Source of the DNA: Promethearchaeia archaeon
GTDB lineage: Archaea; Asgardarchaeota; Lokiarchaeia; Sigyniarchaeales; SOKP01
Length of the DNA stretch: 64,000 nucleotides
Assembly: GCA_029856125.1 (NCBI GenBank)
Contig: JAHQWJ010000120.1
Location: 64,001 to 128,000 of the forward strand
Direction: 5' to 3'
The position numbers were made by a program, and so were the translations under genes. Below, piece by piece: positions 51,802-53,613 of the stretch (position 1 is the stretch's first letter; each line of letters starts with the position of its first letter). The notes beneath the pieces are model-generated. The model ran no database searches, had not been told where the DNA came from, and saw only the letters and a list, made by a program, of their open reading frames with translations.

Positions 51802-53613
51802 TTAATTTGTAATGTAATCTTGGATTTGGTTATCCCAAATTTTCCTTTTACTACCAATATTTTCCCACTCGTTCATAATTTCGCTCTTAAGATATTCCGT
51901 AGTCGGACTCATTGGTAAATTATCTAAAAAACCAATATATCTCGGGACATGGTAAAAAGCAAGGTTATGAAATAAGAAGTCGCTCAATTTTTTAGGAGTA
52001 AGGGTAGAACCCTTCAGCTTTACGACATATAAAATCACTTCTGTTTTTGGTTTTAAATCATTTACGAAGGGGATACACGCACTTATATAAACTGAAGGAT
52101 GAGAATTAGCCATTCTTTCAATTTCTCTTAAATAGATTATTTCTCCAGCTCTATATATAATCTCATTCTTTTTGCCTTTAAAATATAGAAAATTGTCGTC
52201 ATCAATATATCCAAAATCCCCTGTATAAACCCAACCGTCATCACTTATCCTTACATCACTAATTTCCGGTAGTTTGTAATATTCAAATGTGACGTTAGTT
52301 CTTGATTTTACAGTTATTTCACCAATTTTATCTGGTCCTGGAGATAATTCATTACCATTCGGATCTACTATTTTCAAATCAAGAGAATCTAATGGTTTTC
52401 CGACTGATCCCATTTTTCCTCCATATGATCCCAATGTATTAATTGTAATTCCCACTCCTTCCATATGGGAATAACACTCATACAATTTTATTCCAAATCG
52501 GTTTTCAAATGATTTCCATAATTCATCGCCAGCAGCAAAACCATACGCCCATTTTAAGGGGTGTTTCCTATCAAACTTGCTAGGATTATTATACAAGAGG
52601 TATAATAAATAACCACCATAGTAAGTAAAAACTGTGGGAGAATGTGTTCTAACATCGTCCCAAAAATTCTTTACATTGAAATTTTGTGCTAAAACAACGG
52701 GAATATTATAAAACAATGAAGGAATAATAACATAAAATTGTGCTGCTCCTTGAAATAAAGGCATTGGACAATAAATTTTTGTATCGTATGACAATCCGAT
52801 GCTTTTTAATTGATAACCTATGTTTATAGAAGTAACCAATACATTTCTATACAACACGCCTTTTGGTTTTCCCGTAGTGCCTTCGGTATACATAATATGT
52901 ATTGGATCTTCTTCAAATATGCTAACTTTAGGATTATCAACATTTGAACTCTTGAGTAATTGAAAATCTAAATAATCTTCATTAAATTCAAAGTCTTTTG
53001 GAGCGTTATGAATATAAATCTTTTTTATTTTTGGTAATTTAAGACGCAATTCATCGAACTGTTTTAGAAAAATGTGATCGATAATGAGAATTGTCGTATC
53101 ACTATCGTCCAAAATATGCTCTAAATATTTTCCTTTCAATGCAGTATTAATTGGGACAAAAACGCACCCGGATTTTACTATACCGAACCAAGAATATAGA
53201 AAATCCGGACAATTACCCATCATCAATGAAATATTTGGGTTTTTAACATTTAGTTTATGAACTAAATCTAGTATCCCCCATGCGATTTGATTCGATTTTT
53301 CATTAATGTCCTTAAAAGTATACTTCTCATTTTCATAATATAATATTACTTGATTACTATTTTCTGTTGCTTTCTTTCTAAGCAACTTTGGAAGAGTTTC
53401 ATTACCACTACCATATTCTTTAATCATTCTAGAATGGACATTATCCCTTCTAATTATTATAGAGTCATTTTTAATCTCTAGCAAAACTTCTTCATCATTT
53501 TTAAATGGAAAGGAACTATCATTAGCAACTTTAGTTGGAACGTATATCCAGGTTGTTTTATATTTACCTTTACCAGAAGGTTTTTCAACAATTTTACTTT
53601 TTCCAAATTCCAT
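51802..53613 (-). CDS. AbrB-like N-terminal domain fused to a CaiC-like AMP-binding fold with degenerate catalytic motifs
   Basis: N-terminal TWIYVPTKVANDSSFPFKNDEEVLLEIKNDSIIIR; YTEGTTGKPKG, YTGD, YHVPRYI; A10 Lys missing (LPMSPTTEYLK). Confidence 0.8.
   Translation of the reverse strand: MEFGKSKIVEKPSGKGKYKTTWIYVPTKVANDSSFPFKNDEEVLLEIKNDSIIIRRDNVHSRMIKEYGSGNETLPKLLRKKATENSNQVILYYENEKYTFKDINEKSNQIAWGILDLVHKLNVKNPNISLMMGNCPDFLYSWFGIVKSGCVFVPINTALKGKYLEHILDDSDTTILIIDHIFLKQFDELRLKLPKIKKIYIHNAPKDFEFNEDYLDFQLLKSSNVDNPKVSIFEEDPIHIMYTEGTTGKPKGVLYRNVLVTSINIGYQLKSIGLSYDTKIYCPMPLFQGAAQFYVIIPSLFYNIPVVLAQNFNVKNFWDDVRTHSPTVFTYYGGYLLYLLYNNPSKFDRKHPLKWAYGFAAGDELWKSFENRFGIKLYECYSHMEGVGITINTLGSYGGKMGSVGKPLDSLDLKIVDPNGNELSPGPDKIGEITVKSRTNVTFEYYKLPEISDVRISDDGWVYTGDFGYIDDDNFLYFKGKKNEIIYRAGEIIYLREIERMANSHPSVYISACIPFVNDLKPKTEVILYVVKLKGSTLTPKKLSDFLFHNLAFYHVPRYIGFLDNLPMSPTTEYLKSEIMNEWENIGSKRKIWDNQIQDYITN

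Follow-up and report, generated by a model that had tools for sequence, protein, structure and literature searches.

What does an acyl-CoA ligase do when it is joined to a DNA-binding domain? This is the question raised by a 603-aa gene in the 64,000-nucleotide stretch of Lokiarchaeia DNA analysed here (the window), which is part of contig C126 of the 3.7-Mb genome G000. An earlier note, made from the letters of the stretch, had read the gene as an AbrB-like domain fused to an apparently dead ligase and had proposed a regulator that senses its ligand through the ligase pocket. Based on sequence comparison, we consider it likely that the fusion is a one-component pseudoenzyme regulator, which would act on ester and organic-acid genes through a palindrome. 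The features are collected in Table 1.

Table 1. Parts of the fusion gene and palindrome sites in the window (window positions)
Feature	Position	Strand	Remarks
AbrB-like/ANL fusion gene, 603 aa, candidate one-component regulator	51802..53613	-	Intact ORF
Residues 1-58, swapped-hairpin domain (AbrB/MazE/SpoVT-like), family motif W-x-Y-x-P...F-P-F	53440..53613	-	Model and fold matches
Residues 73-480, large ANL subdomain; E244, Q288, S382/M384 altered; K251, E385, D466 kept	52174..53397	-	
Residues 481-580, small ANL subdomain; A8 Arg/Lys/Asn lost; E573 at A10 (codon 51895-51897)	51874..52173	-	
Site in the fusion's own promoter, 41 bp before the ATG, core of the 14-bp palindrome	53654..53665	.	
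Site in divergent promoter: family-5 substrate-binding protein (49440-51716 +) and 173-aa membrane protein-ABC operon (43019-49231 -)	49325..49336	.	Kept in G147 and other clade A/B genomes
Site between carboxylesterase (37209-38744 -) and FATP-like acyl-CoA synthetase (38910-40781 +)	38799..38810	.	Kept in G147
Site upstream of Fe-ADH (35880-37046 -) and CoA-transferase subunits (34074-35811 -)	37148..37159	.	Kept in G147
Site upstream of acyl-CoA dehydrogenase (31389-32606 -) and enoyl-CoA hydratase	32666..32677	.	Kept in G147
Site upstream of methylmalonate-semialdehyde dehydrogenase (MMSDH, 27030-28508 +) and Fe-ADH-family gene (28539-29855)	26956..26967	.	Also in G147 and G059
Site between HpaB/4-hydroxybutyryl-CoA-dehydratase-family gene (22843-24294 -) and MFS transporter (24505-25944 +)	24417..24428	.	

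Genomic setting

The fusion gene lies between two family-5 ABC clusters, as had been described, with three genes between it and the second of them. Family-5 ABC genes occupy positions 43019-49231 and 57787-63807 of the window and C126:127860-130779 of G000. The ATPases of both clusters carry long N-terminal extensions (the ABC domain begins at residue 187-318), and each cluster includes a small membrane protein (173 and 178 aa) divergent from the binding protein, the 173-aa one lacking a Pfam match. Directly upstream of the fusion gene, a 337-aa protein without Pfam match is encoded (53786-54799, minus strand); it also precedes the fusion in genome G147, with 76% identity and a dN/dS of 0.24.

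A paralogue of the fusion, 62% identical, was found in G000, 7 kb outside the window. Two more carboxylesterase-like genes and a beta-lactamase-fold esterase-like gene, so named from sequence appearance, adjoin this second paralogue beyond the window (C126:130921-135122) and extend the cluster. Elsewhere in the window, positions 8757-9296 (minus strand) hold what looks by sequence like a small Ras/Rab-like GTPase; GTPases of this kind are typical Asgard eukaryotic-signature proteins.

The N-terminal domain

The first ~57 residues had been assigned to the AbrB/MazE/SpoVT swapped hairpins, and structure prediction agreed. The AF2 model of the domain (pLDDT 90) has the order strand-strand-helix-strand-strand. 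A VIA-align comparison with 48,161 chains gave ten matches with Z of at least 3, all of the AbrB type –VapB, C56, SpoVT, AbrB, MazE, and the histone-like protein 5itj–, each with a low Z (3.1-4.8, below 5; rmsd 1.9-3.3; 44-51 residues aligned) and unanimous as to type. Foldseek returned nothing at E<=0.001, and its weak matches agreed with the AbrB type.

Sequence searches reached less far. Residues 1-78 had no Pfam match, and the domain matched no Pfam or NCBIfam AbrB model directly; MazE_antitoxin (PF04014) weakly matched 25 of 126 relatives (best E 1e-4) and not the query itself. The ESM Atlas gave no usable match to residues 1-60, PDB sequence searches found no solved fusion and MazE only at E 0.2-0.35, and a search for related loci returned one locus only.

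A dimer model of residues 1-60 had been proposed in the earlier note as a check, and it displayed swapped-strand contacts. The predicted homodimer scored an ipSAE of 0.51 (best control 0.00). Among solved proteins, 20 of 30 pairs and 1 of 23 single chains came up to the mark; the runs shared at least 92% of contacts, with pLDDT of at least 71. The contacts b2-b2′, b4-b4′, and b1-b3′ (residues 22-25 with 25-21, 51-55 with 55-51, and 4-7 with 45-43) form the interlaced pattern of swapped hairpins. Both the fold and the predicted dimer topology are alike to those of SpoVT, AbrB, MazE, and VapB (2w1t, 1yfb, 2mrn, 3zvk) and of the archaeal C56 (7xi6). Since AbrB dimers are already solved, the score speaks for likeness rather than for binding. 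The N-domain models as an AbrB-type swapped hairpin with a predicted dimer.

Standalone proteins made of this domain form a wider family (501 matches, mostly of 55-90 aa). Among them, P0132-P0268 represent a large uncharacterised swapped-hairpin family with the same Y-x-P...D-x-x-F-P-F signature, outside the Pfam models.

The ligase body

The full-length AF2 model (pLDDT 88) presented the two-subdomain ANL fold, and Foldseek matched the ligase body to AuaEII and 4CL at E 2e-38. In the Pfam search of the 603-aa protein, AMP-binding (PF00501) covered residues 79-446 (E 4e-51), AMP-binding_C scored under its cut-off at 497-569, and the body stayed under every NCBIfam cut-off.

Four motif changes had been quoted from the sequence, and all are present and align as described: E244, which replaces the P-loop (A3) Ser; YSHME at A5, with S382 for Gly and M384 for Thr; K481; and E573. 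Two of them need rewording. The A8 Arg is indeed lost, but its replacement by K481 is conservative. At A10, E573 stands where a catalytic Lys had been expected, but the nearest standalone ligases mostly carry Arg there and a few fusions of the Glu clade carry Lys; all 37 rows classed as standalone have one or the other. We discarded the broader statement that the A10 Lys is absent from all fusions: 5 of 98 carry it, and these sit inside the Glu clade and are degenerate at other motifs.

Further changes add to those first described: the A4 His is Q288, the A8 Lys is N483, N492 became Ile, and the A8 'RRRGEN' is degraded in the window copy with Gly490 kept. Residues R487-R488-R489-G490-N492 of A8 are invariant in 25 sister ligases and variable in late fusions, and the N-x-x-x-K-G stretch (156-161), which varies little or not at all in the sisters, is degenerate in late fusions. 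K251, E385, D466, W381, N392, and G395 stay at 98-100% in the later lineages. The nucleotide-binding A7 Asp (D466), A5 Glu (E385), and P-loop Lys (K251) are at 97-100% across the fusions, and the window copy retains all three; some tunnel-side residues (F312, F317, W318, P557, and R558) are still invariant.

In active ligases, the A10 Lys is the key catalytic residue, the A7 Asp and A8 Arg contact the ribose, and A8 is the partner of the pantetheine tunnel; the His, Thr, and Arg mutants of 4-chlorobenzoate:CoA ligase are each 100-500-fold down (PMC8388817). With the A10, A8, A4, and A5 residues lost, it is highly probable that the window copy would be unable to complete adenylation or thioester formation. 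The three ligases of the window used for comparison in the earlier note do have intact motifs, and one of them lies under the palindrome.

In the one pair compared, with the G147 orthologue, the N-domain had a dN/dS of 0.19, the large subdomain one of 0.18, and the small subdomain one of 0.40; neighbouring genes ranged from 0.10 to 0.34. By these values, the small ANL subdomain is under relaxed selection. We infer that the acyl and adenosine pocket of the large domain has been retained and that the CoA/thioester side has relaxed.

Family, distribution, and order of events

Around 100 full-length homologues of ~600 aa (36-81% identity) align with the fusion, residues 1-58 included. The N-domain profile matched 52 of 151 Lokiarchaeia genomes, nearly always in a ~600-aa ORF, and in the other Asgard classes it matched small standalone ORFs only. 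The earlier note had considered that the gene could be a decaying copy. Patchy presence (5 of 39 genomes of the genus carry the fusion) and the many motif losses would suit a decaying or accidental fusion without function. This is hardly credible against ~100 intact homologues of ~600 aa down to 36% identity, a dN/dS of ~0.2 comparable to that of neighbouring enzymes, and invariant residues specific to the fusions. The homologues of the window copy's branch lack intact motifs too, and since they share this loss and the gene is under purifying selection, it is not a decaying copy. It belongs to a real, conserved, and apparently undescribed protein family.

In a tree of the ANL part (motif columns, a few of 508, included; near-redundant rows excluded), all fusions formed one branch (100/100) among CaiC-like standalone ligases. 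This gives the fusion a single origin, out of a CaiC-like ligase. The first-branching fusions are motif-intact and mostly Helarchaeota-labelled, and the remainder is a nested clade (100/98). Five early-branching fusions (P0100, P0269, P0275, P0277, and P0278) keep the P-loop, the A4 His, and the A8 Arg/Lys/RRRGEN, and their A10 Arg is the same as in the standalone sisters; P0273, probably truncated, likewise keeps these motifs. Sisters and early fusions share the P-loop, the A4 His, an invariant A8 R-x-K-D-x-I-R-R-R-G-E-N, and Arg/Lys at A10, the nearest standalone relatives being ~40% identical to the early fusions. In later lineages, A10 became Glu, Leu, Phe, Met, Gln, or Tyr, and A8, A4, and A3 eroded variously.

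The conservation of the architecture and of its motif loss, which the earlier note had proposed to check, held in part: the fusion is shared by ~100 homologues and the motifs are lost in the window copy's branch, but the earliest branches keep nearly all of them. Because motif-intact fusions branch first and the losses fall in nested later lineages, we infer that fusion came first and catalytic decay later.

At A10, Arg takes the place of Lys in most of the nearest standalone relatives, as a natural variant. In genome G054, two standalone CaiC-like ligases with A10 Arg and A5 Asp flank a fusion gene (L080:1606-3324 and 11794-13470). P0271 was set aside as an unfused member: the N-domain of this Helarchaeota fusion holds a frameshift and a short duplication (L095:5760-6001), from an assembly error or a real lesion, that give it this appearance; P0273 is probably a similar case.

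The palindrome and its candidate regulon

The best copy of the recurring palindrome had been placed in the promoter of the fusion itself, and there it is: a perfect 14-bp palindrome at 53653-53666, 40 bp before the ATG and the only exact copy in the genome. With up to two mismatches, the window has six matches (1.95 expected; 1 of 100 shuffles reached six). The conserved element is the shorter TTAC-N4-GTAA, present in seven copies in the window. Of 27 distinct orthologue loci, 19 have it in the 130 bp upstream, in most cases 12-42 bp ahead of the start; the background is 16 of 3057 genes in G000 (0.5%).

Nine of the 19 intergenic copies in G000 fall in C126:88-137 kb, a 50-kb esterase/CoA/ABC cluster with both paralogues (nominal binomial p 1e-12, for an interval chosen post hoc, after the sites were known). 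At 16 fusion-centred loci, a spacer of 4 gave 30 intergenic sites, and other spacers gave 0-5. The same gene cluster in G147 has seven sites, and Helarchaeota fusions, with entirely different neighbours, have one or two exact sites upstream. When the extended palindrome was counted over the 151 genomes, those with the fusion did not clearly stand out by eye from those lacking it; local regulons disappear in the background. The palindrome was outside the top genome-wide enriched palindromes of G000. Since the counted genomes are related MAGs, co-occurrence counts are not independent. Altogether, the association of gene and site makes it very likely that the fusion binds TTAC-N4-GTAA.

Regarding single targets, the MMSDH gene scored above the TIGR01722 cut-off, and its orthologues occur only in fusion-bearing genomes (9/9); three of the nine MMSDH loci with upstream DNA, G000 counted, have the site. 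The 4-hydroxybutyryl-CoA dehydratase was rejected as a conserved target, with a site upstream in 1 of 30 genomes. As the site is absent upstream of the dehydratase in the 29 others, the 24417..24428 site is probably either of recent origin or one that acts on the MFS gene.

At the TM173 promoter, 9 of 20 fusion-bearing genomes have the site and the other 11 lack it, as do all 10 fusion-less genomes; the comparison is confounded by linkage, paralogy, and kinship. These counts bear on whether the palindrome belongs to another, unlinked transcription factor, with the fusion as one more target and its N-domain non-specific or structural. Binding of the palindrome by the fusion is a prediction from sequence, and the widespread standalone N-domain proteins have no known specificity. 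Still, the site is missing from the TM173 promoter in every fusion-less genome, the G000 sites concentrate around the two paralogues, and the fusion is the sole gene common to all site-rich loci examined, so we regard ownership by another factor as quite improbable.

In the clade-B own promoters, the BRE-TATA ends ~22 bp before the site, which puts the site at the expected start and fits autorepression. At the window targets, where TATA mapping is too weak to tell activation from repression, the site-to-TATA geometry is inconsistent.

Candidate targets by clade

In one clade, the candidate targets are genes for a family-5 importer, flavin oxidoreductase, and thiolase. In another, the candidate is a DUF2284-corrinoid-RACo operon with a CoA transferase; this operon was found in 31 genomes, 29 of them fusion-bearing, with the site in 25 of 27. 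Its example in G113 (L083:5982-9583) has DUF2284, a B12-binding corrinoid protein, and a RACo activator under the palindrome, as in ~30 other genomes, and adjoins a clade-C fusion and the CoA transferase. Possibly, DUF2284 belongs to a methyl-transfer system. Since the clades control different pathways, a single ligand for the whole family is unlikely.

Helarchaeota fusions head NMO-like/SDR/ECH/ChsH2-OB/thiolase operons for beta-oxidation, and the called genes of these early-fusion operons include no other ligase. This position, together with the motifs and the A10 Arg of the sisters kept in the five early fusions and P0273, makes it plausible that the early Helarchaeota-labelled members are bifunctional trigger enzymes of the BirA/PutA kind. 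On the same reading, the window copy would adenylate its acid slowly, and the bound acyl-AMP would be the signal. It does retain K251, E385, and D466, but Glu occupies its A10 and P-loop positions, the His, Thr, and Arg whose losses are so costly (PMC8388817) are missing, and the motif-intact ligases of the window include one under the same site. For the window copy, slow adenylation is less plausible, and we consider it improbable.

Proposed mechanism and ligand

For the preferred reading, a pseudoenzyme regulator, we propose the following. Two subunits would dimerise through the swapped hairpin, as modelled, and the dimer would bind TTAC-N4-GTAA, as its co-conservation suggests. The sites would control the fusion's own promoter and a local regulon of family-5 ABC importers, esterases, the FATP-like ligase, the CoA transferase, the acyl-CoA dehydrogenase and hydratase, Fe-ADHs, and MMSDH. 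The CaiC-like body, its catalysis lost and its acyl and adenosine pocket conserved, would be the sensor: an organic acid set free by esterase action would enter the pocket, perhaps together with ATP/AMP or in the form of its acyl-adenylate, and alter the hold of the dimer on DNA, most likely lifting repression. That sensing goes through the ligase pocket appears quite likely; that the protein acts as a repressor is probable, with moderate confidence.

As to the effector, the esterase-rich regulon suggests an acid freed from esters, and we lean towards a free acid or its adenylate over an acyl-CoA. With the A8 and CoA-side residues decayed, a long-chain fatty acyl-CoA would be less likely. Lignin-derived acids are one possibility; stable-isotope (SIP) data tie Loki-3 to lignin and humic-derived acids (PMC8027215). 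In the window copy's clade, E244 may block ATP at the P-loop, which would make nucleotide co-sensing weaker there.

A variant within the same reading has as effector an acyl-CoA thioester, like that of BzdR or FadR, which the co-regulated CoA transferase or FATP-like ligase would produce. CoA-pathway enzymes are among the targets in every clade, the tunnel-side F312, F317, W318, P557, and R558 are invariant, and the CoA site is conserved poorly even among active ligases (PMC8388817). However, the A8 hairpin lining the pantetheine tunnel and the 156-161 stretch are degenerate in late fusions and the small subdomain is relaxed, and we give this variant only a minor share.

Relation to known systems and significance

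A literature search, with most subscription journals outside its scope, found no AbrB-ANL fusion and no comparable Asgard regulon described. By analogy, the fusion may be set beside BzdR, whose DNA-binding domain is an HTH: both would join a DNA-binding domain to an enzyme-derived sensor in the control of acid catabolism. BzdR is the benzoyl-CoA-responsive repressor of Azoarcus, and its sensor is an enzyme-derived shikimate-kinase fold without catalysis (PMC3602430). BzdR is bacterial, whereas the Asgard fusion is archaeal and combines a swapped hairpin with an ANL fold. The fusion has neither the HTH nor the shikimate-kinase-like domain, and the analogy is one of principle only. SpoVT also pairs a swapped hairpin with a ligand-type domain, of the GAF type, but the partner in the fusion is a 540-aa ligase. 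The fusion belongs to neither the BzdR nor the SpoVT family.

CaiC-like ATP-dependent acyl-CoA ligases (NF004808/PRK06155, NF005947) have the same ANL fold; compared with them, the fusion adds the DNA-binding domain and, in the window copy's branch, has lost the A10, A8, A4, and A5 residues. The trigger enzymes BirA, PutA, and NadR are enzymes with a DNA-binding domain that are still catalytic, with other folds, and the signal of BirA is an acyl-adenylate. They could serve as a model for the early Helarchaeota members only.

A wider reading, which we hold tentatively, as possible but short of likely, is a new Asgard transcription-factor family with an ANL sensor, its stages preserved in living members. 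In Helarchaeota, fusions that are still active would supply the first enzyme of the beta-oxidation operon that they also regulate, acyl-adenylate being the signal. In the Lokiarchaeales lineages descended from them, catalysis would have been lost along several paths and the operator retained, and the proteins would have been turned to regulons for esters, for corrinoid methyltransferases, and for beta-oxidation that deal with different organic acids. It has been proposed that enzymes recruit DNA-binding domains and later lose catalysis to become regulators, and for BzdR the intermediates had to be synthetic (PMC3602430). The Asgard fusion has natural, apparently catalytic ones, and because motif-intact and motif-dead members share operator and origin, the idea becomes testable on natural proteins.

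If true, the fusion would represent a new sensor class, built on the acyl-CoA-ligase fold, and a new architecture among prokaryotic one-component regulators. It would also provide a candidate set of regulator, operator, and regulon for Asgard archaea, whose operator would let targets be read from genomes and give clues to import and degradation in Lokiarchaeia.
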